A DNA stretch of 64,000 nt from Dehalococcoidia bacterium (lineage in GTDB: Bacteria; Chloroflexota; Dehalococcoidia; Plut-88900): contig CBDBLV010000005.1 of NCBI GenBank assembly GCA_965207225.1, forward strand, positions 160,001 through 224,000, given 5' to 3'. A model generated the notes under the pieces. It searched no databases. It saw only the letters and a list, made by a program, of their open reading frames with translations, and had not been told where the DNA came from. This document shows positions 9,848 through 44,900 of this stretch, piece by piece (positions within the stretch are counted from its first letter, which is position 1; each line of letters starts with the position of its first letter). The position numbers were made by a program, and so were the translations under genes.

Positions 9848-9992
9848 GAACCCTCACCCCCTTTGTCCCCCTCTCCCCCGTATCGGGGTACGGGGCAGGC
9901 TCTTAGGGCCAATAAGGGAGAGGGAGAGATAAGAATAGAGGCATACGCATGAGCTTCGCCCATGCGTATGCCTCTAGTTCAATATTGGGGGA
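9848..9992 (+). repeat. Composite repeat family G (fixed hairpin + variable-stem hairpin + AGTTC tail) with a nested insert
   Basis: Same architecture at ~12750, 14841, 42170, 44609, 44737. Confidence 0.8.
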
Positions 9993-10005
9993 GGAGGTGG
10001 GGGTG

Positions 10006-11151
10006 TCAGTAGACGCCGGGTAGGATGCGGTATTTGACCCGGGACTTGTACTCGGCCCACTTCTCGGGGCCGTATTTTTCGGCGCAATGCCTGTCGTCGT
10101 CACGCTGACGGAATGTAAACAGGGTGACGATGAAGGCCATGTATATCCAGGACCACGCAACGCCGAAGTGGCCGAAGGACAGGGCGATGGACAGGGAAAG
10201 AAAGCCCTCGCCGAGGTAGTTGAAGTGCCGGGCGACGCCCCAGAAGCCACTGTGAAGGATCTTGCGGTCGCCTGCCTGGATGTATTTCGGCTCGATGAGG
10301 CCCAGGAACTTGCGGTCGGGCCAACGTTTGAAGGTGTATTTCTGCATATTGGCGCCGCGTGAGATGGTCCAGCCAAGGAGGAAGAGGGCGGCGGTCCCGA
10401 TGAGCCAGACATAGGTCCATGTCGTGGAGAAACCGGGGTCGGGATAGGCGGCCATGCCCCAGAGCGGGAGGATGAAAAGCCATCCGTAGACGATCAGGCC
10501 GCCCCAGAAGAGCATGAAGCCGAGCCTTTCGTGGATAAGGTCGTAGGTGTAGAGCTGGACGCGCTCGAAGATGAAGTAGTCCAGGATGTAGAAGGTGAAG
10601 AAAGCGGCGTAGAGGTAGACGCCGGGATTGGTGTCGTCGCCGAAGCGCTCGTGGTGGTAGGCGGCGCCGGAGAGGGCGTTGAGCGCGAGCATAGTCCCGC
10701 CAACGACATAGAAGTACATCTTGACGTCGAGGCGGTTGTTGAAGAAGGAGAGCTCCCGGGCGCGGCCGGTCCAAAGGGCGGCGATGGGGTTCCTGTTCTT
10801 GCCCTGGGGCTGACTGAATACGGCGATGATGGCGAAAATGGTGGTGAAGACGGTGCCACCGGCCACGGCGTAGATGGATGAACGGTAGAACCAGTCCCGG
10901 GATATCCCGATGGGCTCGAAGGCGAAGGCCCACACGAGGATGGCGATGATGAATACGAGGAGGCCGTTGAGGCGGTACTGTCGGGGCTGACCGGTGTCGG
11001 GGTTGATGACGTAGCCCGGGACCCGTCTTGCGGGCAGGATGATCTGGGCGAGGAAAAAGGCGGCGAAGACGGCCAGCGGTGTGAAGAAGCCGGCGATGGC
11101 CTCCGTGCGGGAAAGCTCTACAAGGTGCTCAATACCGAGCCATTCGATCAA
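10006..11151 (-). CDS. ERG4/ERG24-family sterol reductase-like membrane protein
   Basis: YRLNGL, ERLGFMLFWG, RGANMQKYTFK, SGFWGVARHFNYLGE, RQRDDDRHCAEKYG, VKYRILPGVY. Confidence 0.85.
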   Translation of the reverse strand: MIEWLGIEHLVELSRTEAIAGFFTPLAVFAAFFLAQIILPARRVPGYVINPDTGQPRQYRLNGLLVFIIAILVWAFAFEPIGISRDWFYRSSIYAVAGGTVFTTIFAIIAVFSQPQGKNRNPIAALWTGRARELSFFNNRLDVKMYFYVVGGTMLALNALSGAAYHHERFGDDTNPGVYLYAAFFTFYILDYFIFERVQLYTYDLIHERLGFMLFWGGLIVYGWLFILPLWGMAAYPDPGFSTTWTYVWLIGTAALFLLGWTISRGANMQKYTFKRWPDRKFLGLIEPKYIQAGDRKILHSGFWGVARHFNYLGEGFLSLSIALSFGHFGVAWSWIYMAFIVTLFTFRQRDDDRHCAEKYGPEKWAEYKSRVKYRILPGVY

Positions 11152-11256
11152 GGGGTGACCTCCGTGCCTCGGGTGTGGGGAAGATTATGGGGGTGGGGAG
11201 GGGGGAGGTCAACGATTGGATAGGCGGTAGTCTATGGGCGATACTGTGGGAAAGGA

Positions 11257-12243
11257 ATGAGAAAGAAAATTGACATGGGAAACCTAGAATTGTTCATAAA
11301 TGGAACCGATATCTCGCAATATTTGGATGCTTGGTTTCAATCTGAAGAAACAGGGTCGGAATGGACGGTACATGTTGGTTTGACTCACAACAGCTATACA
11401 TCGGGGCTGTTGGGTCCATTGAATGGCCGGAAAGTCTGCGCCTGTTATCGGTTGAATACTGGCGAAGTTAGTGGGCCTTGGTCTTCAGGGAAGGCAGAAC
11501 TTAACTGGCGCCATACGAGAATTGGTACAGAAGAGGTCATATTGCATGGCGTGGGACGATTGAAGAAAGACAAAGACGGATCCAAGATTCCTAATACACC
11601 TGTCACTGCGAGAGTCAGTAAATTGATGTTCTCGGAAGGTAAGGTAATCGAAAGAGAGGAAGAGGAAGGAACAATCACTGTTGTTGAAGAAAACCCACAG
11701 GAGAAGGCCAAGAGAAAGGCAGAAATAGAGGCTGCTCAAGAGGCTCAAATTCAAGCAATAACTAGTCCGGAATTTATTTTATTTCTAGCAAAAAGCGCGC
11801 AAATCTCCTATCAATTGCTCTACGACACAGGAAAATTGGATCATTACAGAGAACTTTCCTATTCCTCCTTTATTTTTCTTCCCCTCTCGATCGAATATTT
11901 CTTGAAGTATTTGATACGTAGGAGCAGTGGCTCGCTTAGGAGAGAGCACAAAATTCATAAACTACTTGCACTATTCGACTACCTTTCGTTCGATTTACAA
12001 GACTCCATAGACGAGGAATTCAAGAAGGAACTGAGGAAAATAGGAAGGGACAGAACATTTCAAGACCTTCGGGTTTTTCTGATGAAAACACAGGATAGCT
12101 TTACAGCAATCCGATATTTGTTCGAACTTCACAATGCAACGGAATCGAGGCATCTACTTAGGCCCGAAAACATTGCGGTTTTGACCTGCGTGCTCAATGC
12201 CGTTGAGAGCGTAAGTAGGACAATAGGAGCCGTCGACTCCTAG
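11257..12243 (+). CDS. Hypothetical protein with a probable C-terminal HEPN-like domain
   Basis: LSIEYFLKY...HKIHKLLALF...FTAIRY pattern; low GC. Confidence 0.55.
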   Translation: MRKKIDMGNLELFINGTDISQYLDAWFQSEETGSEWTVHVGLTHNSYTSGLLGPLNGRKVCACYRLNTGEVSGPWSSGKAELNWRHTRIGTEEVILHGVGRLKKDKDGSKIPNTPVTARVSKLMFSEGKVIEREEEEGTITVVEENPQEKAKRKAEIEAAQEAQIQAITSPEFILFLAKSAQISYQLLYDTGKLDHYRELSYSSFIFLPLSIEYFLKYLIRRSSGSLRREHKIHKLLALFDYLSFDLQDSIDEEFKKELRKIGRDRTFQDLRVFLMKTQDSFTAIRYLFELHNATESRHLLRPENIAVLTCVLNAVESVSRTIGAVDS

Positions 12244-12404
12244 GAACCCTTCCGTGGTTGTCAGTTTCACACCTAGCCTATTTATCCAGCCTGAGCCGAA
12301 CAACGGTTGAACCCACGAAGATTGAGAGAGTGATGGACACATAACTTGTCATGCCTCCTTAACAACACTCAATTCGAGGAGACTTTGTGAATCGGGGCGC
12401 AATG

Positions 12405-12434
12405 TTGACATAAGCTTTTTGGGGGGTTTATGCT
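12405..12434 (+). promoter_or_regulatory. Sigma70-type promoter
   Basis: TTGACA (12405-12410), 18 bp, TATGCT (12429-12434). Confidence 0.6.
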
Positions 12435-12440
12435 GGCTTC

Positions 12441-12743
12441 ACCCTAGGGACTACGGGTAAAGGGACCCGAGAAAGGAGAGGCGAATGAAACGGTTACATC
12501 TGCTGATTGTTCGTCTCGAAATCGACTGTAACGGCCCCGCCGGAGACCCGGGGATGGGCGGCAGTGATATGGGAGAGTCTCCGGCGGGGAGTCGGAAGGC
12601 TGTCTCCCAGCCCTAAGGCAACAGCTCCCTCAGTGTGAAAGCTCATCCGGTTTCGAGCACCGGGGTAACAAGGCCAGGGACAGCCAGCAGTATTTTTGTC
12701 TCACAGAAAGGCCCGGGGAATGGCACCCGGGCCTTTCGCTTTT
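12441..12743 (+). ncRNA. Candidate stand-alone structured RNA, containing a 43-codon ORF at 12485-12616
   Basis: Bounded by a promoter and a terminator. Stems 12535-12547/12577-12589 and 12598-12604/12679-12685, with inner hairpins. No same-strand gene downstream. Confidence 0.45.
12706..12743 (+). terminator. Rho-independent terminator
   Basis: GAAAGGCCCGGG-loop-CCCGGGCCTTTC followed by GCTTTT. Confidence 0.75.
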
Positions 12744-12749
12744 GTGCGT

Positions 12750-13370
12750 GGGAGGGGGAGAGAAGAACAGAGGCAGACGCCCTGTGCTCCAGCACAGGGC
12801 GTCTGCCTCTAGTTCGGTACTGGGGAAGGGAACCCCGCCACCCCAGGGTTAAGTGGAGTCCCGCCCACCCGCCCTGGTTTATTGAATTATCAGAAATGCT
12901 GCCAAGCAGCATTTCTGATAATTCGTTGCCAAGGGGGAAGGGGGATCACCCTCACCCCAGCCCTCTCCCGTCGAGGGAGAGGGGGTTAGGACACCCCGCC
13001 CTAGATTCCTCGCGGGGCCTCGGGATGGGGGGATGGTCGATGGGGAGGGCGTACGAGACGGATTGGCAAGGCGAGGGCCTCCGGGTGAGCGGCCCCGCAA
13101 CCCGGGGAGGGCGACCAGCCGGTCGCCCCTACGGGGAACGAGGACGATCCCCATCCCCAAGGGATGGATTCCCGATCGGGGGCGGGAATGACGGGGAGGG
13201 GTGGGGGTAGGTATGGAGGGGGCTGGCGACTAGGAGAATGTGGGCCGCCCCCCGCTCGACCCTTCGAGTGGGGGGCGGCCCCGCAACCCGGGGGGCGACC
13301 AGCCGGTCGCCCCTACGGAAAGCCGGTACGGGCACCCCCGGAATCTTAGCGGGGAATCGAGATGACGGGA
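12750..13370 (+). repeat. Large modular repeat array (families G, F, D, A, C, E, B, C, E)
   Basis: Consecutive recognisable copies of the window-wide repeat families; no credible CDS. Confidence 0.85.
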
Positions 13371-13381
13371 GAGGGAGGGGG

Positions 13382-13648
13382 TTAGAGGTTTGAGAGGAGG
13401 GTGAAGATTGTGGGGGCGGTGTGTTGGGCCTGAGCTTTGAGTTCCTTGAGGTCTTCGAATGAGGCCATCATGAGGCCCCGGCCGAAGCGGGGCCCGTGGT
13501 AGTAGCAGAAGCGGAGGGACTCCTCGCCGTCTTCGTAGCGGAGGAGCTGGATGGTGGGCTCCCAGTGGGGTCGAAGGACGCTGACTTCCTCGACGACCTG
13601 GCCCTTGCCCCAGGGGAATTCGAAGGGTCTGGGTAGTTTGCGATCCAT
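13382..13648 (-). CDS. Hypothetical protein (88 aa)
   Basis: ATG at 13648 just after ruvA; globular-looking sequence WGKGQVVEEV...EPTIQLL...LRFCYY. Confidence 0.6.
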   Translation of the reverse strand: MDRKLPRPFEFPWGKGQVVEEVSVLRPHWEPTIQLLRYEDGEESLRFCYYHGPRFGRGLMMASFEDLKELKAQAQHTAPTIFTLLSNL

Positions 13649-13662
13649 GGTGCGGGCCTCGC

Positions 13663-14244
13663 TCAGGTTGCGCCCATGCGCTGGAGCACGGCCATGACTT
13701 TTTCTTCGAGGGGAGCGGCGGGGTCGATGTTCACGCCTGCCAGGGCGGTGCGGGCCTCGGAAGGCTGGTAGCCAAGCGCCGAGAGGGCGGCGACGACTTC
13801 GTCGAGGTCGGGGCTTGGGGATACGGCGATCTCTCCCCACTCCCGCTCCATCTTGCCCTTGAGCTCCAGGACCAGTCGGCCGGCGGTCTTATTGCCCAGG
13901 CCATTGACCCGGGTGAGGGCGGGAATGTCGTCGGAGCTGATGGCGCGGGCGAGGTCACGGGGGGACATTGCGGATAGGACGGCGAGGGCGAGTCTCGGGC
14001 CGACCCCAGAGACGCCGATGAGCATGATAAAGAGTTCCCGCTCCTCCAGGGTTGCGAAGCCGTAGAGGGACAGCACCTCTTCCCTTATGTACAGGTAAGT
14101 GTGGAGGCGGACGGGTTGTCCGGTCGGGCCGAGGGCGCCGATGGTGGAGGTCGGGGCGAAGACCTCGAGGCTGAGGGGGCCGATGTCTATGGTGAGGGCG
14201 TCGTCGGAGACGGCTTCGAGTGTGCCCCTGAGTCCGGTAATCAT
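13663..14244 (-). CDS. ruvA: Holliday junction branch migration protein RuvA
   Basis: MITGLRG, LYGF, VSGVGPRLALAVLS, GLGNKTAGRLVLELKGK, ALSALGY. Confidence 0.95.
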   Translation of the reverse strand: MITGLRGTLEAVSDDALTIDIGPLSLEVFAPTSTIGALGPTGQPVRLHTYLYIREEVLSLYGFATLEERELFIMLIGVSGVGPRLALAVLSAMSPRDLARAISSDDIPALTRVNGLGNKTAGRLVLELKGKMEREWGEIAVSPSPDLDEVVAALSALGYQPSEARTALAGVNIDPAAPLEEKVMAVLQRMGAT

Positions 14245-14248
14245 GGCG

Positions 14249-14752
14249 TTATCCCTGGGCGCTCTCGGCGATGAGTCGGGCCTGGGCGCTTTCCTGGATG
14301 TGGCAGAGGGCGACGGCCACGGCATCGGAAGCGTCAAGGGAGTCCGGGAAGGAGTCGAGGTCGAGCTGGAGCCGGACCATCTCCCGGACCTGCTCCTTGT
14401 CGCTGCCCCCGTGACCCGTGACGGCGAGTTTCACCTGCCGGGGGCTGTAGTGGAAGACCCGGGCGCCGGCGCCCGAGGCGGCGAGGAGGGCCACGGCGTT
14501 GGCCTGCCCTACGAGGATGGCGGAGCGGACGCTCTTGTGGACGAAGGGCTCTTCGACGGCGACTTCGTCGGGGGAGTGAAGGGCTATAAGTTCGTTGAGG
14601 CCTTCAAAGAGGATGTGGAGGCGTTGGTCGACGGGTCGGGAGGAGGGGGCCTTGAGGACGCCGCATGAGAGGAGGGTCGGGCCCTGGGGGTGGTCTTCGA
14701 GGAGGGCGAAGCCCATGTTGAGGGTGCCGGGGTCTACGCCTAGGCATTTCAT
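14249..14752 (-). CDS. ruvC: Crossover junction endodeoxyribonuclease RuvC
   Basis: LGVDPGT, AVEEPF, VKLAVTGHG, DASDAVAVALCH. Confidence 0.95.
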   Translation of the reverse strand: MKCLGVDPGTLNMGFALLEDHPQGPTLLSCGVLKAPSSRPVDQRLHILFEGLNELIALHSPDEVAVEEPFVHKSVRSAILVGQANAVALLAASGAGARVFHYSPRQVKLAVTGHGGSDKEQVREMVRLQLDLDSFPDSLDASDAVAVALCHIQESAQARLIAESAQG

Positions 14753-14840
14753 GGACTTGCCTCTGGCGCTCGGCGAGCGGTGACCTGTGAGGTTGGTGCC
14801 CTGTGAGTCAAGATGTTCACATTTTAGCATTGTGGGAGGG

Positions 14841-15011
14841 GGAACCCTCACCCCCTTGGTCCCTCTCTCCCTTAGGGCCTGTAAGGGAGAGGGGGAGATA
14901 AGAACAGAGGCAGACCCGCTGTGCTTTGGCACAGCGGGTCTGCCTCTAGTTCAGTACTGAGGGGAGGGGGAATGTCCCAACCCCAGATTCCTCGCAGAGC
15001 CTCGGAATGAC
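14841..15011 (+). repeat. Repeat array (family G + family A)
   Basis: GAACCCTCACCCCC...GGGAGAGGGGGAGATAAGAA, hairpin 14906-14947, family A at 14985-15011. Confidence 0.85.
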
Positions 15012-15025
15012 AGGGAAAGCAGGGG

Positions 15026-15784
15026 TTAGTTTTCTTCGCCGTAGCTTTGGAGGGCCTCGGGGGGGAAGTCTGCGTTGGAAAAGATGCGCTGGATATCGTC
15101 CAGGGCCTCCAGCTTGTCCATGAGGCGGAGGGTCTGGAGGGCGCCCTTTTCGTCTAGCTCGATCATGGACTTAGGAATCATGGAGAGCTCTGCGGAGTCG
15201 ATGGCGATTTCCTGACCTTCAAGCTCTTTACGCACGGACTCCAGGGTGTCAGGTCGGGTGTGGACTTCGAGGGTTGAGTCCTCGATCTTGACGTCCTCGG
15301 CGCCGGCGTCGATGGCGACGAGGGCGAGCTCCTCGGGGTCTTCGGAGGCGGGGGTGATCATGATTACGCCCTTGGAGTCGAAATTCCAGGCGACGGAGCC
15401 GGTCTCGCCGAGGTTGCCGCCGTTGCGGGTGAGGGTGCTGCGTACCTCGGCGACGGTGCGGTTCTTGTTGTCGGTGAGGGCCTGAACCATAAGGGCTGCG
15501 CCACCCGGGCCGTAGCCTTCGTAGGTGACCTCGAAAAGGTCGTCGGCGTTGGCGCCGTCGCCCGCGGCGCGCTTGATGGCCCGCTCGATGTTGTCCATGG
15601 GCATGTTGTTGTCGCGTGCCCTCTGGACGGCGAGGCGAAGGTTGAAGTTGGCGTCGGGGTCGGGGCCTCCGCGCTGGACGGCTACGGAGATCTCGCGGCC
15701 AAGCTTGGTGAAGAGCTGGCCTCGGCGGGCGTCGTTAGCCCCCTTCTGTCTCTTGATGGTGGACCATTTGGAGTGTCCCGACAT
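15026..15784 (-). CDS. yebC: YebC/PmpR family protein
   Basis: MSGHSKWSTIKRQKG, YEGYGPGG, TDNKNRT. Confidence 0.95.
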   Translation of the reverse strand: MSGHSKWSTIKRQKGANDARRGQLFTKLGREISVAVQRGGPDPDANFNLRLAVQRARDNNMPMDNIERAIKRAAGDGANADDLFEVTYEGYGPGGAALMVQALTDNKNRTVAEVRSTLTRNGGNLGETGSVAWNFDSKGVIMITPASEDPEELALVAIDAGAEDVKIEDSTLEVHTRPDTLESVRKELEGQEIAIDSAELSMIPKSMIELDEKGALQTLRLMDKLEALDDIQRIFSNADFPPEALQSYGEEN

Positions 15785-15902
15785 GGGCATACCTCCTTCA
15801 ACACTCCAGCAGGGAGTAGGGCTTATGGAGATTATTATAGCGGATGAGGGGTCGTGGGCGACTTAGACGGATGACCAGTGTCAAAATGACTGTAGACCGA
15901 CG

Positions 15903-16322
15903 ATGGAGAAACGAGAAATTACTGATTACCTCGCTGGGGGTGCCCCAGCGACCGAGGTGGATTTGATTGATAGAAGACTGCTAATTGGGGGGAGCGCAAT
16001 GGCCCTGATTCTCACCACGGCCCTAGCCGGCCTTTTTCTCTTCATCCCCCTAATCAGCCCGGAGACTAGCGCCACCTGGGCCGAGTCGGGAACACTTTGC
16101 GGTATGGCATTGGTGGGAGTCGCCTCAGCGGGGGTCACCCTTCAGTCCGCCCGGCATGGTGGGAGGTGGGGATGGGTGGGCCTAGCCCTAGGACTGTTTT
16201 ATCTGGTTGTGCCGTGGACAATCCCCTACTTCGTAGGAGTGGTCCATCTGACCGTTTTACCAGCCGGGTTCACCACTGCGATCGCCGTGGCGAACACGTT
16301 CTCTCGAAGACTGCGGGAATGA
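15903..16322 (+). CDS. Hypothetical membrane protein (about 4 TM segments)
   Basis: Hydrophobic segments; fills the gap between yebC and rimM. Confidence 0.55.
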   Translation: MEKREITDYLAGGAPATEVDLIDRRLLIGGSAMALILTTALAGLFLFIPLISPETSATWAESGTLCGMALVGVASAGVTLQSARHGGRWGWVGLALGLFYLVVPWTIPYFVGVVHLTVLPAGFTTAIAVANTFSRRLRE

Positions 16323-16356
16323 TAATCACCAGACGCCTTTTGAAAGCCCAGAATAG

Positions 16357-16848
16357 TCAAATGACTTCCGTGTCTTCGACGACCATCCGGCCGGCCTGCA
16401 GGTCTATCTCTACTACGAAGTCGGGGAGGACGGGAACGAGTAGCTCGCCGTTGGGGGTCTGGATCAGGTAGACATCGTTGGCCGGGGTTTCGAGAACGTC
16501 CTTGACGGGACCCAGCTCCCGGCCATCCCTGGTGACCGCGAGGAGGCCGATGATCTGGAAGCGGTAGAACTGGCCCTCGGGGAGGGGGTGAAGCTGGGAC
16601 TCAGGGACCTGGAGGAGGGCACCGCGGAGGGTCTCGGCGTCCTCAGGGGTGTCGACGCCCTTGAACTTCAGGACCCAACGGTGCTTCTGGGGTCGGCTGG
16701 CGGTTATTTCGAAGGGCTGGTCATCGAGGAGGAGGGTGCTGCCGGGAGCGAAGCGGTCTGGGAAGTCGGTGAGGGATTCGACGACAACGCGGCCCCGGAG
16801 GCCGAAGGGTTTGATTATCCGGGCGACGGTTATGGGGGAGTCGGGCAT
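16357..16848 (-). CDS. rimM: Ribosome maturation factor RimM
   Basis: KPFGLRG, TDFPDRF, ETPANDVY, LLVP; follows rpsP-khpA. Confidence 0.95.
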   Translation of the reverse strand: MPDSPITVARIIKPFGLRGRVVVESLTDFPDRFAPGSTLLLDDQPFEITASRPQKHRWVLKFKGVDTPEDAETLRGALLQVPESQLHPLPEGQFYRFQIIGLLAVTRDGRELGPVKDVLETPANDVYLIQTPNGELLVPVLPDFVVEIDLQAGRMVVEDTEVI

Positions 16849-16878
16849 GGTGGGGGGATTTTACATGAATGGGGAAGA

Positions 16879-16968
16879 TCGCCCTCACCCCAGCCCTCTC
16901 CCGTCAAGGGAGAGGGGGCCGGAGGCCTCTCTTCGCCACCCCAGATTCCTCGCGGGGCATCGGGATGG
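16879..16968 (+). repeat. Repeat families D + A inside the rpsP-khpA-rimM cluster
   Basis: CCCTCACCCCAGCCCTCTCCCGTCAAGGGAGAGGGG; AGATTCCTCGCGGGGCATCGGGATGG. Confidence 0.8.
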
Positions 16969-17024
16969 TGTGGAAACAGGCGCGGGCTGATGCGGGAGGG
17001 GCAAGGAAAGAGTAGGGGAGGGGG

Positions 17025-17506: not shown

Positions 17507-17625
17507 TTGTAAGTTGTCCGATCGAATAGAGGAAAGCCGTGATGGAGGAGTCGGATAATTGCGGCCTTTCCCGGACAGCACCGTCTCGCTGACGGCCCTG
17601 ACCCTCAGTTTGATAGAATTGACGA

Positions 17626-17655
17626 ATTCTAGCCTTGAGAGGGCGTGATTGTCAA
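17626..17655 (-). promoter_or_regulatory. Promoter of the rpsP operon
   Basis: Minus strand TTGACA, 18 bp, TAGAAT. Confidence 0.6.
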
Positions 17656-36256: not shown

Positions 36257-38005
36257 TTAGTCTTCAAGGGTGGAGGTATCGCCCTCGGGGAGGCCGAGTT
36301 CGCGGGCCTTGAGGAGACGGCGCATGATCTTGCCGCTGCGGGTCTTGGGCAGGGTGTCGATGAAGTCGATCTCCCGTGGTGCGACCGCAGGTGAGAGCTT
36401 CTGGCGGGCGAAGCGCATCAGCTCGCGGCGGAGGGAGTCGGACTGCTCGAAGCCGTCCTTGAGGGAGACAAAGGCCTTGACGACCTCCATGGCTATGGGG
36501 TCGGGCTTGCCGATGACACCGGCCTCGGCGACGGCAGGGTGCTCGATGAGTGCGCTTTCCACCTCGAAGGGCCCGACCAGGTGTCCGGCTGTGTTGATCA
36601 CGTCGTCGGCGCGGCCGACGAACCAGAAGTAGCCGTCCTCGTCCATGCGGGCCTTGTCGCCGGTGATGTACCAGCCGTTCTGGAAGCGGGAGTTGTAGCG
36701 TTCCTCATTGCGCCAGTAGGTCTTGAACATGGAGGGCCAGCCGGGCCTGATGGCGAGGTGGCCTTCCTGCCCGGCGGGCAACTCGTTGTACTCGTCGTCG
36801 AGGATGCCGGCAGTGATGCCGGGGGTGGGGCGGCCCATGGAGCCGGGCTTGATGTCCTGGATTGGGTAGTTGGAGATGAGGATGGAACCGGTCTCGGTCT
36901 GCCACCAGGTGTCGTGGAAGGGGAGGCCGAAGACGCGTTCGCTCCAGATCACGGCCTCGGGGTTGAGGGGCTCGCCGACGCTGGTGATGTAGCGGAGGGA
37001 CGAGAGGTCGTGGCGTTTGACGACCTCGTCTCCGGCCTTCATGAGCATACGGATGGCGGTCGGGGCGGTGTACCAGACGGTGACGCCGTACTTTTCGATG
37101 ACCCGGTACCAGCCCGACGCCCCAAAACCACCCTCGTAAATGATCTGGGTTACGCCGTTGGTCCAGGGCGCAACCATGCCGTAGGAGGTGCCGGTGACCC
37201 ATCCGGGGTCGGCGGTGCACCAGTAGATGTCGTCGGCGTGGAGGTCCAGGGCCCACTTGCCGGTGGCGTACTGCTGGTAGGCGGCACGGTGTGCGTGGGC
37301 CGCGCCCTTGGGCTTGCCCGTGGTCCCCGAGGTGTAGTGCATTATGTCGTAGTCTTCCTCGGTGGTGCGGACGATTTCGAAGTCCTCCGAGGCGGAGGAC
37401 ATGGCCTCTTCGTAGCTGATGTCGCCCGCGTCCAGGGGGCCCTCATCGCGGTTGTTCTTGTTGACGATGATGACGTGCTTGAGGTCGGGGAGGTCGCCGA
37501 GTATGCCGCCGATCTTCTTGCGGAGCTTGGGGCTGGTGATGAGCACCTTGGCCCCCGAGTCCTCCATGCGGTCTCTAACGGGGTCGGGGCCGAAGGCAGA
37601 GAAAAGGGGCCCGGCGATGGCGCCGGCTTTCAGGATGCCGAAGAAGGCGAAGTAGAGCTCGGGGACCCGGTCCATGAATATGAAGACGCGGTCTCCAAGC
37701 TCGACGCCCAGACCGGAGAGGACGTTGGCGAACTTGTTGGACTGGGCCTTGAAGTCTGCGAAGGTGTAGGTCTCCTCCTCTCCGTTGGCCCCTAGCCAGT
37801 GGAAGGCTACCTTGTCACCCTTGCCGTGGACCACGTGCCGATCGATGGCTTCGTAGGCGAGGTTGAGGCCGCCGCCGGGAAGACCGTCAAGCTCGGCCTT
37901 GATGGTGTCCCAGGAGAAGTCGTCGCGGGCGGCATCGTAGTCGGGGATGTTGGGCGTGACCTGGATTTCGCTGAGAGCGGGCTTGGCGATAAGGTTGTCG
38001 GCCAT
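36257..38005 (-). CDS. acsA: Acetate--CoA ligase (AMP-forming)
   Basis: YTSGTTGKPKG, WCTADPGWVTG, SVGEPLNPE, DTWWQTETG, LPKTRSGKIMRR. Confidence 0.93.
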   Translation of the reverse strand: MADNLIAKPALSEIQVTPNIPDYDAARDDFSWDTIKAELDGLPGGGLNLAYEAIDRHVVHGKGDKVAFHWLGANGEEETYTFADFKAQSNKFANVLSGLGVELGDRVFIFMDRVPELYFAFFGILKAGAIAGPLFSAFGPDPVRDRMEDSGAKVLITSPKLRKKIGGILGDLPDLKHVIIVNKNNRDEGPLDAGDISYEEAMSSASEDFEIVRTTEEDYDIMHYTSGTTGKPKGAAHAHRAAYQQYATGKWALDLHADDIYWCTADPGWVTGTSYGMVAPWTNGVTQIIYEGGFGASGWYRVIEKYGVTVWYTAPTAIRMLMKAGDEVVKRHDLSSLRYITSVGEPLNPEAVIWSERVFGLPFHDTWWQTETGSILISNYPIQDIKPGSMGRPTPGITAGILDDEYNELPAGQEGHLAIRPGWPSMFKTYWRNEERYNSRFQNGWYITGDKARMDEDGYFWFVGRADDVINTAGHLVGPFEVESALIEHPAVAEAGVIGKPDPIAMEVVKAFVSLKDGFEQSDSLRRELMRFARQKLSPAVAPREIDFIDTLPKTRSGKIMRRLLKARELGLPEGDTSTLED

Positions 38006-38111
38006 GGATCCACCTCCGTGAGCGGCGCGGGCGCGGGGCCCGGGCGGGTTCTACACGGCCCAAAATGTAATGCAAGGGGTCGGGGGTAGTCAACGCGGGG
38101 GAAGGGCTGGG

Positions 38112-38588
38112 TCAATTGAGGCAGAACATTTGCATAAGCTCGTTGAGAATCTCATGCATGACCGGGAACTGAGAGCGAGTCAGTGTATCCTTGATAATTT
38201 CCTCGCCCGTGCTTGGGTCAAATAAGTGACGGTGATAAATGTTTTCCTCATCAAGGTGCATGTTATCGTAGCGGAGCACATTATGCCTACCCGGAAACCA
38301 CGCATTGTAGGAATAGATTGACATCCGCACCCGTCGATTACGCGATTTATCTAATGCTCCTGTCTTACGTATCTCGAGATTTAGGCCATTCTCGAAGACG
38401 ATGAAGCCCCTCACAACTAGCATGTCGTGAGGGGCTTGCGGTTGCAATACTGGCGTGAAGTCTAGGCTGGATTCCTCCATTAGAACATAGGGATGATTCT
38501 CAAGATGCATCTCATGAAGGTATATGTAGTTGTCTAGGGGATTCCAGTTGTGGGGGTCTCCCCTCTGATCATCCTTAAGGTCTGCCAT
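38112..38588 (-). CDS. DUF6516/TumE-like toxin
   Basis: YSYNA...VLRYDNMH...YHRH motif; low GC. Confidence 0.65.
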   Translation of the reverse strand: MADLKDDQRGDPHNWNPLDNYIYLHEMHLENHPYVLMEESSLDFTPVLQPQAPHDMLVVRGFIVFENGLNLEIRKTGALDKSRNRRVRMSIYSYNAWFPGRHNVLRYDNMHLDEENIYHRHLFDPSTGEEIIKDTLTRSQFPVMHEILNELMQMFCLN

Positions 38589-38836
38589 GTCCAAACCCAG
38601 TTAGAAACATCGCGTGTCTCGGGCATTTCACCGAGGTGGAGACTTCTGAGCATCGTTTCAGAAGACATGCTGTGTCTACGCTCATAATCTTCGAGTTGTT
38701 GACTTAGGAGTCTCTGCAACTCTCGAGCATCCGACTCAGAGCGGACTAGAGCCGTTTCGATGCGCTCTTTTATGTCCGCACGCCATTCGGATTCTGCTCT
38801 CTGTCCGTTACCATTCTTTCTCACAATGATGCCCAT
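38534..38836 (-). CDS. Putative antitoxin (TumA-like)
   Basis: LEDYERRHSMSSE...GEMPE...W motif; overlaps the toxin start; RBS GGAG. Confidence 0.6.
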   Translation of the reverse strand: MGIIVRKNGNGQRAESEWRADIKERIETALVRSESDARELQRLLSQQLEDYERRHSMSSETMLRSLHLGEMPETRDVSNWVWTWQTLRMIRGETPTTGIP

Positions 38837-39233
38837 GTTAGTCTCCCGCAGACTTTGGGCCTGAAGTTGACAAAGCTCCACCAAGCCCATATACTCCCTT
38901 TGTCTCGAGAGAACTCATGGGACAGCAATCATAAAGGGTGTTGCCGCACCCTCTTGAGTGCCTACCCAATATACTACATATAGGGTTCAGCATCAACGAC
39001 CCCACAATTTGTGGGGTTATTTCTTTTGTACAAACTCCTGGTAAATGGCCTATTTCCCGGAGAAGCTTTGGGGCGGTGAACGCCCAACTAATCACTTGGA
39101 GGCCAGCTTGCAGAGCTTGCAGTTTTTCTTGAGGCTCACTAAGTAGTGCCCCCACACTTCGGGGCGGACTTCGGCTTCTTGCTAGCTTTCTTGTCGCCGT
39201 TCCTAGCGCCTTCCAATGCCGCCGTCGTCTGAC

Positions 39234-40655
39234 CTATGCACCCGACAGGAACTCGTTGTAGGTTACGAGCTTGCGGTAGGCGTTGGCGCTGCGGTGGAAG
39301 GTGGGGAAGGAGGGGATGCCACGGGCCAGGAGCCGGTCACGCATGTCTATGGCGGCGACTTCCTGGTCGACGGGGCAGACGGTGCAGAAGTAGGGCTTCT
39401 TGGTGCGCTCCCGGTGGTTGGCCAGGATATCAATCAGGCCGCTCACGTAGCCTTCGCCCATCGACTCCCGACGGTCCAGCAACGAGGTGGTCAGCTCGGT
39501 GGTGATGGCGTCGACGGTCGGGTCCCGTTCGAGGATGTCGAGGATGCGGACGAGGACGGTCTGGTCGGGGAGGTTGGAGCTGATGTCCAGGGGGTTGCGG
39601 TAGCTGGCACCGATGACGCTGAAGAATTGCGAGAGTTCTTCGTAGCTGGAGTCGCTGAGGGGGCCGATGGTGAAGCCCTGCTTGGCGAAGGCGTCGACGG
39701 CGGCGACGGCCTGTCCTCCGGTAAGGGCCATGACGCCCATGCGCTCGCCGGTGGACGGGGCGATGTAGAGGAGGCCCTTGAGCACATCGACGAGCTCTTC
39801 GAGGCTGTGGACGGGGAGGGCGCCGCACTGGCGGACGAGGGACTCCCAGACGGTGTACTCGGTGGCGAGGGAGGCGGTATGGGAGGAGACGGCCCGGGCC
39901 CCGTCCGAGGTCTGGCCGCCCTTCCAGATGACAACGGGTTTGCGCTTGCAGACGTCCTTGAGCACGTCGAAGAAGCGACGCCCGTTCTTGACGCCCTCCA
40001 CGTACATGCCGATCATCTTCGTCTCGGGATCCTGGCCGAGGTATTCGAGGTAGTCGGGGACGTCAAGGACAATGGCGTTGCCGAGGCTGACCAGCTTGCT
40101 GACCTTCACCCCATGGGCTCCGCCCAGCAGGCTGAAGTACATGCTCTGGGTGCCACTCTGGCCGATGAAGCCCACGGGCCCGGCCTCTCCGGCGTACTGC
40201 TGGGGGGTGAAGCGGACGCCCCGGCCGGGGATGAAGAGGCCCATGCAGTTGGGCCCAACCAGCATGAAGTTAGCATCCCGGGCCATCTGCTGCATCTGGT
40301 TTTGGAGGGCTATCCCCTCCTCCTCGGCGGTCTCGGCGAAACCGGATGTGAAGAAAGTGGCTCCTCCGACTCTCTTTTCGATGCACTGCTGGAGGACCAT
40401 GGGGGCGAACTTGCGGGGTACGGAGACGATGACGAAGTCTATGTCGTCGGGGACATCGAGGATGCTCTTGAAGTTCTGATACCCCATGGCCTCGATGTTG
40501 GGGATCTCCCGCTCGTCGATCTGGACGGAGTAGACGGGGCCCTTGAAGGTGCTCATGGAGTTGAGCCAAGAGTAGCCGAGGGCCTGCTTGTCGCCGATGA
40601 CGGCGGCGGTTTTCGGGTTGAAGAGTCGGTCGAACTTGGATACGTCGATGGTCAT
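39234..40655 (-). CDS. ADP-forming acyl-CoA ligase, CoA-binding (alpha) subunit
   Basis: LFNPK, SGFAE, VGPNCMG, QSG, VSLGN, YVEG, KGG...SHTASLA. Confidence 0.9.
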   Translation of the reverse strand: MTIDVSKFDRLFNPKTAAVIGDKQALGYSWLNSMSTFKGPVYSVQIDEREIPNIEAMGYQNFKSILDVPDDIDFVIVSVPRKFAPMVLQQCIEKRVGGATFFTSGFAETAEEEGIALQNQMQQMARDANFMLVGPNCMGLFIPGRGVRFTPQQYAGEAGPVGFIGQSGTQSMYFSLLGGAHGVKVSKLVSLGNAIVLDVPDYLEYLGQDPETKMIGMYVEGVKNGRRFFDVLKDVCKRKPVVIWKGGQTSDGARAVSSHTASLATEYTVWESLVRQCGALPVHSLEELVDVLKGLLYIAPSTGERMGVMALTGGQAVAAVDAFAKQGFTIGPLSDSSYEELSQFFSVIGASYRNPLDISSNLPDQTVLVRILDILERDPTVDAITTELTTSLLDRRESMGEGYVSGLIDILANHRERTKKPYFCTVCPVDQEVAAIDMRDRLLARGIPSFPTFHRSANAYRKLVTYNEFLSGA

Positions 40656-41359
40656 CAGCGGGCCTGCTCTTCGAGGATGATGCGGGCGTCGACGGCGGTG
40701 AGGCCGTCCTTGTAGGCGAAAATAGGGTTGAGGTCGATCTCCTTGATCTCGTCGTGTTGCTGGACGAACTCGGAGAGCTTGAGGAGGGTGTCTTCGAGCT
40801 TTTCGATGTCGGCGGGCTCCTGGCCGCGGTAGCCCTCCAGGACGGGGAAGCCCTTGATTTCACGGATCATGCTGCGGGCGTCCCTCTTGGTGAGGGGGAC
40901 GATGCGGAAGGCGACGTCCTTGAGGATTTCGACCATGATGCCGCCGAGGCCGAACATGAGGACGGGGCCGAACTGGGCGTCCTTGGACATGCCGATGATG
41001 ACTTCCGTGCCGGGTCGAGCCATGCCCTGTACGGAGACGCCTTCGATGGTGGCACCGGGCTGGTTGGCGTTGATGGAGGCGACGATGTCGTCGTAGGCGG
41101 CGGCGGTCTCGGCTTCGTTCTTGAGCCCGAGCTTCACGCCGCCCATGTCGCTCTTGTGGACGACGTCGGGGGAGATGACCTTGAGGACAACGGGAAAGCC
41201 GATGGCCTTTGCCTGCTCGACAGCCTGGTCACGGGAGGTGGCGAGGGTGGCCTGGGTGGTGTCGATGCCGGCGTCGCGAAGGACCTGCTTGGACTCGACC
41301 TCGTTAAGGAAGGTGCGTCCCTCGCTCTGGGCGCTCTGCAGGGTCTGGCTCTGGGTCAT
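40655..41359 (-). CDS. ADP-forming acyl-CoA ligase, ATP-grasp (beta) subunit
   Basis: GFPVVLKVISPDVVHKSDMGGV, FGPVLMFGLGG, EIDLNP, AVDARI. Confidence 0.92.
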   Translation of the reverse strand: MTQSQTLQSAQSEGRTFLNEVESKQVLRDAGIDTTQATLATSRDQAVEQAKAIGFPVVLKVISPDVVHKSDMGGVKLGLKNEAETAAAYDDIVASINANQPGATIEGVSVQGMARPGTEVIIGMSKDAQFGPVLMFGLGGIMVEILKDVAFRIVPLTKRDARSMIREIKGFPVLEGYRGQEPADIEKLEDTLLKLSEFVQQHDEIKEIDLNPIFAYKDGLTAVDARIILEEQAR

Positions 41360-42115
41360 GGGGTGTCCTCCTTGGGCGGCTGTGCCGTGGGGGAGGATAG
41401 CAACGGGGCTGGTCGGGTGTCAACGCGGGGGTTTATTCGGTTGTGGGGTGAGGTTTTGATTGTTCTTTTGGGTTTTTGGAGGGGGTTGGCGATGGAAGGC
41501 CCGGGACTCAATTTCAGGGGGCGGGAGGCCAGCCTGGTTCAGCCCCGTGTTCCTGTGTCACATGGCAGACAAGCGAAGGGTTCTCGCCTGAGGGCGTCTC
41601 TACCACCAGTTTTTCAGTCTTCCTGCCCCACTCGGAGGGGTGGGGAGGTGTTTTCTCGCTGCCGTCGCTGGGTTTATGGGTATCTCCGAAGGGAATGACG
41701 GGGGAGATTTTTCAAGGGCCGTAAAGCCCGAGGTTTTTCGGCAGGGCTCCTATATGAGGGGCGTGCCGCTTAATGTTGTGGACCTTCCATCGCCTGGATG
41801 GATAGGGAAGGGGTACGGGACCCGTGGTGAGGGGATAATATCCCTGGCTTGTGCCTCGGGCCTGCGCGGGGCCGTTAGGACAGGCTGGGACGTTGAGTCC
41901 TCGGGGTGGGGTCTTGGGGGCTTCCCTGGGTTTTTGGTTCCTCCTTGGATGATGTGAGTTAGTGTTCGATCGGACGCAGGACATGATAGTACCGTCGGAC
42001 AGGTGTGTCAAGAGCAAATGTGCGGCTTTTTGGAGGGAATATCTGAACTGTGATTCATGGGCTTGATGGATTGGTTGGGGGGAGGGAATGCAAGTCCTAG
42101 CCTGGTTGGCGGGCA

Positions 42116-42385
42116 GGGTACCCACAAGGGGCACCCCTACAGGGGAGGGGATGCCCCCAACCCTCGCAGGGAACCCTCACCCCCTTGGTCCCCCTCTCCC
42201 TTAGGGCCTTTAAGGGAGAGGGGGAGAGAAAAACAGAGGCCCACGTGGGTGCGTCGCACCCACGTGGGCCTCTAGTTCAGTACGGGGGGAGGAGAGGGAT
42301 GGGGGTGGGGTCGGGTTGGCCATCGGAGGCTCGCCCCAGCTCCTTAAGGGGCTCGGAGCAGACTAAGCTCGGGGTGAGCGGCCTC
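42116..42385 (+). repeat. Repeat array (families E, G, degenerate C)
   Basis: GGGTACCCACAAGGGGCACCCCTAC; family G at 42170-42290 with hairpin 42235-42273. Confidence 0.8.
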
Positions 42386-42411
42386 TCCCAAGGGGGAGGA
42401 GAAATCCATCG

Positions 42412-42711
42412 CTAGGCTAGAGAGAAGATACCGCTTTCCTCGGTGAGACGTAAGTCCCTGAGATTACAGATACGCTTAAGGGCGCTGATTGTGTTTTCGT
42501 CGCTTGCCTTGAAATTGACCAATCCAGTTTGGTCGAATTCCTTGAGTCTGAGGATGATGCTGTCAATGAAAGAAGGGGTGATGACCAAAGGGCCGTCCAA
42601 ATCCAAGACGAGCTTCCTGTCCAAGAACGAGGACAACTCTCTATAAGCCTCGTTGCCGCGTTCGCGCGTGGAATAAACGGGTACTAAATTGGTGACAGAA
42701 ACGGTGTCCAC
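42412..42711 (-). CDS. STAS-like (DUF4325-type) protein
   Basis: STRERG, LVLDLDG, ITPSFID; follows the HATPase gene. Confidence 0.6.
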   Translation of the reverse strand: MDTVSVTNLVPVYSTRERGNEAYRELSSFLDRKLVLDLDGPLVITPSFIDSIILRLKEFDQTGLVNFKASDENTISALKRICNLRDLRLTEESGIFSLA

Positions 42712-42723
42712 CTACATCGCTCC

Positions 42724-43539
42724 TTATAGAGGAATTGTAATCTGCACTTGCACCCCTGGCAAATCATAGGCTGCTGTGCTGCTCATCAGATTGTATCTGG
42801 TGCCCGGGTTAGCAATGACGTAGCCTTCGCCTGTCGACAGGAACAGGGAGCCGTTAAGGCGCTCAACATTTTCCTTAATTGTGGACAAACCTGTCCCGCC
42901 TTCGTCCTTGCTGGTAACGCCGTCTTCAAAAGCCCTGACTGCCGCAGCCCGGTCATTAGACACATGATATTTCGGAGACAGGTTTTGGCGGATACCCACA
43001 CCACTGTCAGCGAGTGCTATCTCAACATAATGGCCGTCAGGGAACAGCTGGAAAATCATACATGCCGGCGTGTTGATTTGAGAACGGGAATGCCTCACTG
43101 CATTGTCGATAAGCTCTACTACGATGGTTGATATGGCTGAAGGACTGATATGAAGATCCCATTCCTGAAGGATCTCCTGCGTCCATTGTTCAAGGTCTTC
43201 GGCAATCCGGGGTTCGGCAAGAATGTCCAGGGGGACTATATCCTCAAATGAAGTGGGTTTGACCGTTTGCAGTTTGGGTTGCGCCCCATCCCCCTCGAAT
43301 ACGAAGTTAAATCGATCCCAGAAATTCTGTGAATCTAGATATCGTCTGAGTGCACTGGACCTGGATACTCTTATGGTGAATAGCTTTTCTCGCGAGTTCC
43401 AGTATCTAACAAAGGTGCCGAGATAGATGACCGCAAATGGCCCTATACTCTCCACTGAGCGGAGATCTATTGTCGGCTTGGCAGGGTTCATGTCGATGCT
43501 GGAACAAAACGAGGCAATATTGTCTCGGGTCAGCCGCAT
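42724..43539 (-). CDS. HATPase_c (anti-sigma-kinase-like) ATP-binding protein with a STAS-like N-terminus
   Basis: ELIDNAVRHS, ADSGVGI, GGTGL, PGV; low GC. Confidence 0.8.
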   Translation of the reverse strand: MRLTRDNIASFCSSIDMNPAKPTIDLRSVESIGPFAVIYLGTFVRYWNSREKLFTIRVSRSSALRRYLDSQNFWDRFNFVFEGDGAQPKLQTVKPTSFEDIVPLDILAEPRIAEDLEQWTQEILQEWDLHISPSAISTIVVELIDNAVRHSRSQINTPACMIFQLFPDGHYVEIALADSGVGIRQNLSPKYHVSNDRAAAVRAFEDGVTSKDEGGTGLSTIKENVERLNGSLFLSTGEGYVIANPGTRYNLMSSTAAYDLPGVQVQITIPL

Positions 43540-43687
43540 GGCGGGAGTTTATCATGCTATGTCGGGATTATTGCCTGACCTGGAGCTCCACTTAAAGTGG
43601 TATGGCCAAGTCGTTGCCTCACCGCTCCACAGCATGAAGGTGGGCAGATAGTGGCAGGTTGGTGACGATGAACGGCCACCCCGTTCC

Positions 43688-43770
43688 GTTCAGTTGACCC
43701 TTCGACTTCGCTCAGGGTGAACGGAATTCCCTCCCCTTGGGATGGATTCCCGATCGGAGTCGGGAATGAC
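43688..43770 (+). repeat. Repeat families C + B
   Basis: CCCTTCGACTTCGCTCAGGGTGAACGG; GATGGATTCCCGATCGGAGTCGGGAATGAC. Confidence 0.85.
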
Positions 43771-43795
43771 AAAAGAATAGGTAAGGAGTTTGGAA

Positions 43796-44599
43796 ATGGG
43801 TGATGGATTTTTGGGGAAAGTGGCGCTGGTGACGGGTGGGGGGTCCGGGATTGGGAGGGCGAGTTGTTTTGCTTTTGCCCGGGAGGGGGCCCGGGTGGCG
43901 GTGGCGGATGTGGATATGGCAGGGGCGGAGGAGACGGTGCGGTTGATCGAGGAGGCCGGGGGGAGTGGGGTGGGGTTTCGGGTCGATGTGACGAAGGCCG
44001 GGGGGAGTGGGGTGGGGTTTCGGGTCGATGTGACGAAGGCCGGGGAGGTGGAGTCGCTGGTTGAAAGGGTCGTGGAGGAGTTTGGGAGGCTGGACTGCGC
44101 TTTCAATAACGCGGGTGTCGGGGGAAAGGTGATGAACACCCACGAGTACCCGGAGGACGACTGGGACCGGGTTATCGACGTGAACCTGAAGGGCGTGTGG
44201 CTGTGCATGAGGTACGAGATCCCGGTGATGCTGAGGCAGGGCGGTGGGGCTATTGTGAACACGGCGTCGATATACGGGCTGTCGGGGGCGGGGGGATACA
44301 TTGCGTACAATGCGGCGAAGCACGGGGTGGTGGGTGTGACGAAGACGGCGGCGCTGGAGTATGCGGAGGTCGGGATACGGGTGAATGCGATGTGCCCGGG
44401 CTACATCTTGACGCCGATGACGATCCCGGGCATCGAGGCCAATCCTGAGCTGGAGCGGAGGATGGTTTCGCAGACGCCGATGGGTCGGATGGGGAAGCCG
44501 GAGGAGATTGCGGAGGCGGTTGTGTGGCTGTGCTCGGATGGGGCGTCGTTCGTGACGGGGCATACGATGACGCCGGATGGGGGGTACATGGCGCAGTAG
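43796..44599 (+). CDS. SDR-family oxidoreductase
   Basis: TGGGSGIG, NNAG, YNAAKHG, IRVNAMCPG. Confidence 0.93.
   Translation: MGDGFLGKVALVTGGGSGIGRASCFAFAREGARVAVADVDMAGAEETVRLIEEAGGSGVGFRVDVTKAGGSGVGFRVDVTKAGEVESLVERVVEEFGRLDCAFNNAGVGGKVMNTHEYPEDDWDRVIDVNLKGVWLCMRYEIPVMLRQGGGAIVNTASIYGLSGAGGYIAYNAAKHGVVGVTKTAALEYAEVGIRVNAMCPGYILTPMTIPGIEANPELERRMVSQTPMGRMGKPEEIAEAVVWLCSDGASFVTGHTMTPDGGYMAQ
43953..44045 (+). repeat. Exact 42-bp in-frame tandem duplication within the SDR gene
   Basis: AGGSGVGFRVDVTK twice; AGGCCGGGG at 43953, 43995, 44037. Confidence 0.95.
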
Positions 44600-44608
44600 G
44601 GAACTTAA

Positions 44609-44900
44609 GAACCCTCACCCCCTTTATCCCCCTCTCCCTTAGGGCCAATAAGGGAGAGGGGGAGAGAAGAATAGGGGTAGGCACGCCCGCCAAGCGGGCG
44701 TGCCTACCCCTAATTCGGTACCGGTGGGGGAGGACAAACCCTCACCCCCTTGGTCCCCCTCTCCCTTGGGGCCTATATGAGATAGGGGGATAGGAAAACA
44801 GAGCGCCGCACCTGTGCATTTTGCGCAGGTGCGGCGCTCTAGTTCAGTGCTGGGGTGGGAGGGGTACCACGGAATCTGCCTCTAATTCGGTAGTGGGGGG
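44609..44900 (+). repeat. Tandem family G repeats
   Basis: Hairpins at 44672-44712 and 44800-44840, plus a relic tail near 44875-44900. Confidence 0.8.

Follow-up and report, generated by a model that had tools for sequence, protein, structure and literature searches.

The closest known counterparts of the element reported here are the repetitive extragenic palindromes (REPs) and the bacterial interspersed mosaic elements (BIMEs). The bases of REPs vary between copies while complementarity persists, as set out in PMC3333891. The foot of the REP hairpin is described as carrying a conserved GTAG or CGTC tetranucleotide (PMC3733652, PMC3333891), and REPs are described as targets for insertion sequences (PMC1525189). 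Here we report a repeat of this general kind, family G, in a 64,000-nt stretch of the genome of a Dehalococcoidia bacterium (assembly GCA_965207225.1, contig CBDBLV010000005.1, positions 160,001-224,000, forward strand). This whole stretch is called the window below. Family G is built of two modules, and the second of them carries a hairpin whose stem differs from copy to copy while remaining almost perfectly paired.

Integron attC sites are single-stranded sites that work in folded form; their structure is kept while the sequence is free, and they have an ...AAC/GTT... foot and an extrahelical base. IS200/IS605 elements are described as preferring the lagging-strand template (PMC3333891). Template switching between the arms of an inverted repeat homogenizes the arms and inverts the spacer in the account of PMC8604942, and PMC7202029 describes the same outcome at short inverted repeats. 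For hairpins in RNA genes, PMC8794818 distinguishes "loop inversion only" and "multiple compensatory mutation" events that arise by template switching. Among the papers listed in a search of the literature on intergenic palindromic repeats of Dehalococcoidia and Chloroflexi, none described family G.

Family G is best filed as a variant of the REP/BIME-like mosaic intergenic repeats, found in one uncultured Dehalococcoidia genus. Like REPs, it is a high-copy, extragenic, GC-rich palindromic hairpin (123 near-full copies); its bases differ between copies with complementarity kept; it lies in mosaic clusters with other motifs, the number of units varying per locus; and it is itself an insertion sequence target. 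Unlike REPs, it has no GTAG/CGTC tag, and its foot, GAAC ... CCTCT-A-GTTC, contains CTAG (69 copies). Its stems of 18+4 bp are near-perfect, whereas REP stems are imperfect, and there are dozens of stem variants as against two or three REP types. REPs form inverted pairs, whereas family G copies are single hairpins in one orientation that is locked to the GC skew. No Y1/RAYT (REP-associated tyrosine transposase) gene was found in any of the nine genomes of the genus. We consider family G to be, more likely than not, a REP/BIME-like two-module repeat whose palindrome is kept by arm-to-arm copying at the DNA level, with the inner stem unconstrained in sequence.

Copies in the window and anatomy of the repeat

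The window contains six copies of family G, all on the plus strand, and a remnant of a further unit:

9848..9998, plus strand: full copy, long form (∼25 nt extra in the hairpin 1 loop), matched by nhmmer over model positions 1-126 at 118.7 bits; one mismatch in the variable hairpin (9936-9976)
12748..12829, plus strand: partial copy without leader (hairpin 1 3' arm, linker, variable hairpin, tail), nhmmer match at model positions 44-122; variable hairpin at 12769-12810, perfect
14842..14970, plus strand: full copy, short form; variable hairpin at 14906-14947, perfect, 19-20 bp
42171..42296, plus strand: full copy, short form; variable hairpin at 42235-42273, perfect
44609..44733, plus strand: full copy; variable hairpin at 44672-44712, perfect
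44737..44864, plus strand: full copy, in tandem with the preceding one; variable hairpin at 44800-44840 with one mismatch
44876..44900, plus strand: remnant of a further module 2 unit (3' arm end CTGCCTCT and tail AATTCGGTAG), read from the sequence and from the alignment with the closest genome

The original prediction, made from the letters of the window, had described six paired stems between a conserved leader and a conserved tail. All six hairpins were confirmed, four of them perfect and two with one mismatch, and in each the stem is closed by G-C pairs beside a loop of 3-4 nt, where a GC-loop-GC closure had been claimed for nearly all. The leader precedes five of the six stems; at the 12769 copy only its last ∼20 nt are left. 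The first copy begins 3 nt past the stop codon of the open reading frame (ORF) at 9495-9845. Hairpin 1 of the 44737..44864 copy has decayed without compensation, and its ortholog in the sister genome G008 has a different stem that is equally well paired. The orthologous site of the 44609..44733 copy in G008 is without the copy. Other dispersed repeats make up a mosaic at 41430-42150, and the 42171..42296 copy lies at its right end. Within this mosaic, immediately upstream of the copy, the segment 41430-41836 occurs in ∼14 copies and the segment 41883-42045 in ∼20-30.

A profile built from five window copies was searched against the 4.03-Mb, 5-contig genome (G000). The search returned 217 matches on all five contigs; 123 of them, with 100 or more model positions covered and a score above 45 bits, count as near-full. 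These fall into 82 copies of ∼125 nt and 41 of at least 140 nt, the latter with ∼25 nt extra in the hairpin 1 loop. The repeat is non-coding, only 2 of the 123 copies lying inside predicted genes by crude gene calls. Among the 121 copies with arms of at least 16 nt, the variable stem was perfect in 105, had one mismatch in 12 and two mismatches in 4; among them, 76 different 5' arms and 104 different combinations of arm and loop were counted.

Module 1 consists of a constant leader (AACCCTCACCCCC; read 5' to 3' on the given strand, AACCCTCACCCCCTT) and a constant 14-bp hairpin, in which CCCCCTCTCCCTTA and TAAGGGAGAGGGGG enclose a 7-nt loop GGGCCnn. Module 2 starts with a purine-rich linker ending in GAAC, which provides one side of a 4-bp foot helix GAAC/GTTC. 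The base of hairpin 2, AGAGG/CCTCT, is constant; above it come 13 variable pairs, the innermost of which are usually G-C and then C-G, and a loop of 3-4 nt. The hairpin is followed by one unpaired A, the GTTC that pairs with the linker GAAC, AGTAC, and a run of G; the constant tail of the module reads GTTCAGTAC plus the G run. Folded as single-stranded DNA, the copy at 42170-42300 reached -48.7 kcal/mol (z = -7.9), a value matched by none of 200 shuffles. Short-read contigs from three runs are interrupted at the repeats, and they diverge from the point at which the variable stem starts.

Pairing and covariation

Covariation was counted in an alignment of 69 copies, four from the window and 65 from related genomes (those passing a tail-motif filter among 80 loci kept), on a structure written by us. 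In hairpin 2, 14 of 19 pairs have changed on both sides and 98.5% of cells are paired. Two of the four pairs of the foot helix covary (G-C 41/A-U 26 and C-G 54/U-A 14), and the extrahelical A is invariant in 69 of 69 copies. The observed covariation score for all three helices was reached by none of 500 column shuffles. When the partner was slid by 1-3 columns, pairing over the three helices fell from 98.8% to 39-57%. The pairing is genuine and far above chance, and its statistical support is overwhelming.

Hairpin 1 shows no covariation in this alignment, which was itself selected by an exact hairpin 1 pattern. We therefore give the counts for the unselected 123 copies as well. In hairpin 1 of these copies 77 of 1706 pairs (4.5%) are broken, and the arms are 3% from consensus. 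In hairpin 2 of the same copies 41 of 2213 pairs (1.9%) are broken, with the variable arms 31% and the loop 62% from consensus. Hairpin 1 thus decays uncompensated, whereas hairpin 2 is ten times more variable and broken less than half as often.

Mismatches were counted in 198 non-redundant copies (107 from G000, 54 from G008 and 37 from others). The 3622 pairs contain 44 mismatches, of which 10 are G.T, 21 A.C and 13 other. Wobble pairs are rare, and the top strand does not favor them. A.C outnumbers G.T by a weak 2:1, which could reflect either an RNA of the bottom strand or the strong mutational asymmetry of the genome.

Loop inversion and stem types

We compared the loops of copies that share the same inner 8 nt of the stem, which gave 597 comparable loop pairs. 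Of these, 52 were identical and 44 were exact reverse complements, as against one that was reversed only and three that were complemented only in the controls. The count of 44 was reached in 0 of 2000 runs of each of two nulls, one with loops shuffled between groups and the other with random loops of equal composition. In a perfect palindrome, an inversion that takes in the entire hairpin shows up as a reverse-complemented loop. Inversion is seen inside hairpin 1 too (for example at locus L121): by a pattern count, 5 of the 123 copies are flipped, and 42 of 123 fit none of the patterns. Both the loop inversion and the inversion of the hairpin 1 interior are events at the DNA level. Copying of one arm from the other, by template switching, had been put forward as one possibility in the original prediction; it is supported by loops of like stems being flipped about as often as they are identical, together with the flips between orthologs given below, and further by the scarcity of G.T wobble and the excess of compensated over single changes between orthologs.

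Four inner-stem types make up 72 of 117 scored copies: GTGGGTGC (24 copies), GTTGGCGC (24), GCCTGCGC (13) and ACCTGCGC (11). The types go with particular variants of linker and tail (AGTTTGGT, AGTTCAAT, AGTTCAGT). A collapse of the stems into a few static subfamilies, which had been named as an outcome that would speak against the original interpretation, is found in part, in that four types account for most scored copies; but within each type the outer stem still varies, and it does so with compensation. Outside palindromes, 48 distinct 13-nt arms match the genome 33 times, as against 11-23 times in five shuffles. The small excess may consist of decayed copies.

Orthologous loci in related genomes

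With one family G copy as query, matches were found in 17 of 41 related genomes. Within the genus, all eight other genomes gave 9-63 matches each, and a second genus in the family was matched as well. The family members G010 and G011 have little or no module 2. In more distant relatives the matches are confined to module 1, and different small hairpins come after it. Of the two modules, module 1 is hence the older and more widespread, and module 2 of this type is found at the level of the genus.

G008 is the closest genome, with ∼92% identity in genes; it is locally syntenic with G000 and heavily rearranged overall. Orthology could not be assigned through 200-bp flanks, as the flanks themselves are dispersed repeats. 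In their place we used 40 G008 regions of 6-13 kb around copies, anchored on unique genes, which gave 25 candidate same-locus pairs between G000 and G008 with at least one immediate flank at least 70% identical. Thirteen of the pairs carry stems of the same lineage. These showed 16 compensated double changes as against 7 single changes, and as to their loops, 4 pairs agreed, 5 were flipped and 4 differed in another way. A stricter hand count over 10 pairs (without L119:3294, L132 and L115:2089) gave 8 paired and 4 unpaired changes, with 4 loops the same, 4 flipped and 2 other. A clean CTTA/TAAG flip separates L111 from C5:311903; the stem type occurs once in G000, so a paralogous donor is unlikely. 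A second clean flip, AA/TT between the species, lies at a locus that is ∼98% identical. At L115:3315, a single compensated change of C-G to T-A was found next to a flank of 98% identity.

The remaining 12 pairs (4 replaced, 8 with arms of unequal length) differ in the type of module 2, and in several of these module 1 and the upstream flank are clearly orthologous. At L105:4231 an extra module 2 unit follows directly after GGGAGAGGGGGA and closes with a new copy of GGGAGAGGGGGA. One unit is seen in one species and two in the other at five loci (L118, L119, L115, L117 and L111). A 206-bp insertion present in G000 only, and a copy present in G008 only (near window position 46551), both bring neighboring modules with them, and no target-site duplication was found at either. 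Deletions run between short direct repeats such as CCTCT. The original description of a cassette in constant flanks holds in part: linker, stem 2 and tail form one exchangeable unit, with a separate constant module beside it. The G008-only copy lies at L016:3267-3390, and GGGAACCCTCACCCC is still present at the empty site in G000, window 46540-46610. Two readings fit: a separate upstream module may include the first 15 nt of the leader, or an internal deletion may have removed the element from G000.

The 16 paired changes over 13 stems of 18-19 pairs come to ∼7%, on the order of the flank divergence, which suggests that hypermutation is not at work. If so, the tenfold diversity of the inner stem within the genome is old and inherited from many module 2 lineages, and most of the stem diversity would have been inherited and shuffled between loci rather than made in place.

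Orientation and gene context

The orientation of family G agrees with the sign of the GC skew in the surrounding 20 kb for 108 of the 123 copies, and all 15 exceptions lie where the absolute skew is below 0.1. The concordance was again 108 of 123 when the skew was taken from coding sequences only. In G008, 70 of 73 copies were concordant, and 53 of 53 where the absolute skew was at least 0.1. A crude gene call by codon usage gave 3176 genes (83% coding), and the predicted genes are unbiased with respect to the skew (866/813 and 743/754). Plus-oriented elements lie on the G-rich strand. By the usual convention the G-rich strand is the leading strand, which would place the top strand of the element on the lagging-strand template.

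Of the 122 copies with neighbors on both sides, 46 lie between divergent and 21 between convergent genes, 37 have a gene 3' end on the tail side only and 18 on the leader side only. On contig C5, which holds the window at 160001-224000, the skew taken from coding sequence only reaches 0.25 in 25-kb bins, which is unusually strong. Three stretches of C5 that are nearly without skew (∼350-425, 1425-1550 and 1925-2075 kb) carry no family G copies.

Proposed mechanism

In the explanation that we favor, a DNA-level process would copy one arm of hairpin 2 from the other, and the variable stem would in this way stay a near-perfect palindrome. The copying could be template switching during replication or recombination between the two arms, and the same event would invert the loop. 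Only the structure, the foot and the bulge would be constrained, and the inner sequence would be free to drift; from this drift many old lineages of module 2 would come to coexist. The lineages are shuffled between loci by gain, loss and replacement of units at the G-rich junction motif GGGAGAGGGGGA, with linker, stem 2 and tail behaving as one exchangeable unit beside a separate constant module. Since the orientation is locked to the local GC skew, the agent that spreads or retains the repeat would act on one strand, in the simplest case on a single-stranded hairpin at the replication fork. The anatomy, the covariation, the loop flips, the swapping of modules and the orientation lock are observed; we infer template switching as the copying mechanism, and likewise a coupling to single-stranded DNA or replication and any cellular role of the repeat.

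The pattern resembles template-switch (quasipalindrome) mutagenesis in that arms are homogenized, spacers are inverted and several compensated changes appear at once. It differs from it in that such mutagenesis is described as sporadic, whereas family G presents a steady state of more than 100 copies with flips near 1:1. Template switching is, moreover, a process and not a family of elements, and it accounts for the pairing but leaves the spread and the constancy of the flanks unexplained.

When hairpins evolve by compensatory change, selection on RNA structure is the usual explanation, and the signature of family G points elsewhere: a flip ratio close to 1:1, double changes between orthologs that compensate each other, and hardly any wobble suggest that the arms come to agree in one step. 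A family of more than 100 copies would thus be a natural, replicated read-out of template switching or conversion within a palindrome in an uncultured bacterium. The family also calls for caution where RNAs are sought by covariation, as very strong covariation would be possible without an RNA function. The orientation lock, together with the lack of any known mobilizing enzyme in the genomes searched, raises the question of how a REP-like mosaic can spread without a RAYT; for REPs of the CGTC type, the same question is treated as open in PMC3733652.

Several points weigh against the arm-copying explanation. Homogenization of the arms at a neutral rate cannot alone explain an inner stem tenfold more diverse than the flanks, so that old lineages are needed, along with some constraint or turnover by which module 1 stays uniform. 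Arm copying may act together with selection for pairing, be it on the DNA or on the RNA. A single larger paralogous repeat contains four of the ortholog pairs that are flipped or compensated (L115:2327, L120, L129 and L130), and their changes are shared; the four are therefore not independent, and conversion between paralogs could mimic a change in situ at these loci. Neither an enzyme nor a target-site duplication nor a clean insertion boundary was found in the searches and the G000/G008 comparisons, and mobility is thus read only from presence and absence between the species. With respect to the strand, dnaA of G008 (at 623 kb) is located between copies of the same orientation, which leaves the assignment of the leading strand tentative. 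The GC skew along the 2.08-Mb contig C5 flips sign many times, a pattern possibly due to numerous inversions, to DNA that was acquired or to a mis-join in the assembly (contamination of the bin is rated at 8.3%).

Alternative explanations

As to how the modules move, it is conceivable, although we hold it tentatively, that they spread without a transposase: the nascent strand at a replication fork would switch to another locus at GGGAGAGGGGGA or TGGGGGGAGGGG, copy a unit and return. Fork switching at such G-rich and C-rich junction motifs would account for the missing enzyme and the missing target duplications, for units being swapped exactly at the motifs, for the mosaic intergenic regions and for the orientation lock. 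Within a unit, the same process at the fork would maintain perfect palindromes and invert their loops. The spreader could alternatively be an unrecognized recombinase, neither of the HUH nor of the integron type, which would read the foot helix and the bulged A on single-stranded DNA.

We think it unlikely that hairpin 2 works as an RNA, either as a terminator or as a stabilizer of 3' ends, and that its pairing is due to nothing but selection on the RNA structure. The sequence after the hairpin on the minus strand is TTCTTCTCTC or TTCTTATCTC, and a pattern scan flagged 3 of 3 copies in 9000-16000 as terminator-like on this strand, which is a consensus match and not functional evidence; the tract after the hairpin is nevertheless a mixture of T and C with no clean T run. 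Copies in the window lie just after stop codons and between convergent genes. Across the genome, gene 3' ends face the tail side at 58 of 122 copies and the leader side at 39, while 46 of the 122 lie between divergent genes (crude gene calls in both counts), and the orientation tracks the GC skew rather than the direction of genes. The 21 to 10 excess of A.C over G.T on the top strand, with A.C corresponding to G.U in an RNA of the bottom strand, is in the sense expected for such an RNA, but wobble accounts for less than 1% of pairs, which is unusual for a structure selected as RNA. The loop inversions between orthologs are, moreover, DNA events.

It is improbable that family G is a known kind of hairpin-recognized site, whether a REP/REPIN or IS200/IS605 derivative moved by a Y1 (HUH) transposase or an attC-like site, with an enzyme that ignores the inner stem. 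The covarying foot with an invariant extrahelical base, a stem that is variable but paired, and the mosaic clusters with unit number varying per locus are all features that such a site could have. The strand lock would fit the lagging-strand template described for IS200/IS605 (PMC3333891, PMC6006769), and being an insertion sequence target is a property described for REPs (PMC1525189). The enzymes, on the other hand, were not found in G000. Y1_Tnp (PF01797) had no match at E ≤ 0.001 in any of the nine genus genomes, while the control was positive in 6 of 14 named genomes. TnpB (PF07282) was above the cut-off in one of the nine (G005) and not in G000, which also sets family G apart from IS200/IS605-derived palindrome-associated elements (PATEs). 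The integron integrase model TIGR02249 was above the cut-off in none of the nine; its sub-threshold matches are Xer-like recombinases of 314-325 aa, and similar matches were seen in 14 of 14 controls. The GTAG/CGTC tag is missing too, and the stems are perfect, whereas the E. coli enzyme is described as needing a mismatch (PMC3333891).

Family G resembles attC sites in its invariant bulged A, its covarying foot and stem and its cassette-like behavior. This likeness is a resemblance in possible working, not membership. The stems of attC sites are bulged in several places, whereas those of family G are perfect; copies of family G are dispersed over five contigs and are not arrayed with gene cassettes or in a single array; and its flanking genes are unrelated metabolic paralogs. 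To our knowledge, the family G foot does not fit the attC consensus. [quoted passage not shown] Unlike them, family G has no terminal inverted repeats matching a parent insertion sequence and no target-site duplication, and the only insertion sequence that shares sequence with it is inserted into it. Family G is thus not a member of the RAYT-type REPs, the IS200/IS605 derivatives, the attC sites or the MITEs.

The weakest reading, the diversifying or guide-like element of the original prediction, in which arms would be made anew or acquired to match targets, draws on the 76 distinct arms in 121 copies, the constant flanks and the exchangeable module 2, but is already largely refuted by arm matches close to those of shuffled arms (33 vs. 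11-23), by the recurrence of the same stems in sister species, by paired changes in situ at a roughly neutral rate and by flanking genes that are ordinary metabolic paralogs plus one orphan low-complexity ORF.

Insertion sequence, neighboring genes and other hairpins

A 1.4-kb element of the IS481 family encodes a 375-aa transposase (rve, rve_3, LZ_Tnp_IS481) and has the ends TGTATAGACCGGGG... Its copies in G000 (L125-L128) are the following:

C5:1203727-1205129, IS481-family copy
C4:457329-458723, IS481-family copy
C4:503421-504818, IS481-family copy
C1:39043-40439, IS481-family copy

All four are located within the hairpin 1 loop, in both orientations, so the element targets this loop; the same arrangement was found in G008. 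One copy shows an apparent 5-bp duplication, GGGCC. An origin of family G as a MITE derived from this insertion sequence is ruled out, the IS481-family element being inserted in hairpin 1 and not its parent.

Recurrent genes beside family G form clusters of 3-11 members among 187 flanking ORFs. We scanned nine representatives, one per cluster and two from the largest, with none from the 3-member cluster that includes C3:168298. The scanned representatives are paralogs of ordinary enzymes and transporters, except for an 11-member orphan ORF. A nuclease gene consistently flanked by family G, which had been suggested as something to look for, was not found among the flanking-gene clusters. The orphan ORF encodes ∼440 aa and occurs in 11 copies beside family G (L149 at C5:1098026-1099354, L157 at C2:366537-367892 and nine paralogs). 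Its first third, at the N-terminus, is repetitive and of low complexity, and it gave no Pfam, NCBIfam or PHROG match. This ORF is not credible as a nuclease.

No family in Rfam 15 matched family G at the gathering score, and a relaxed search of 42100-42350 returned generic hairpin models below threshold only. The sole hit in the window was a T-box leader (RF00230) at 51346-51612 on the plus strand, with 96.2 bits where the gathering score is 93. At window 12889-12919, and at nine more places in the genome, there is another family of hairpins, TGAATT-ATCAGAAATGCTGC-CAA-GCAGCATTTCTGAT-AATTC, that behaves like family G. Its stems are perfect and differ between copies in a compensated manner, and its loops CAA and TTG form reverse-complement pairs.

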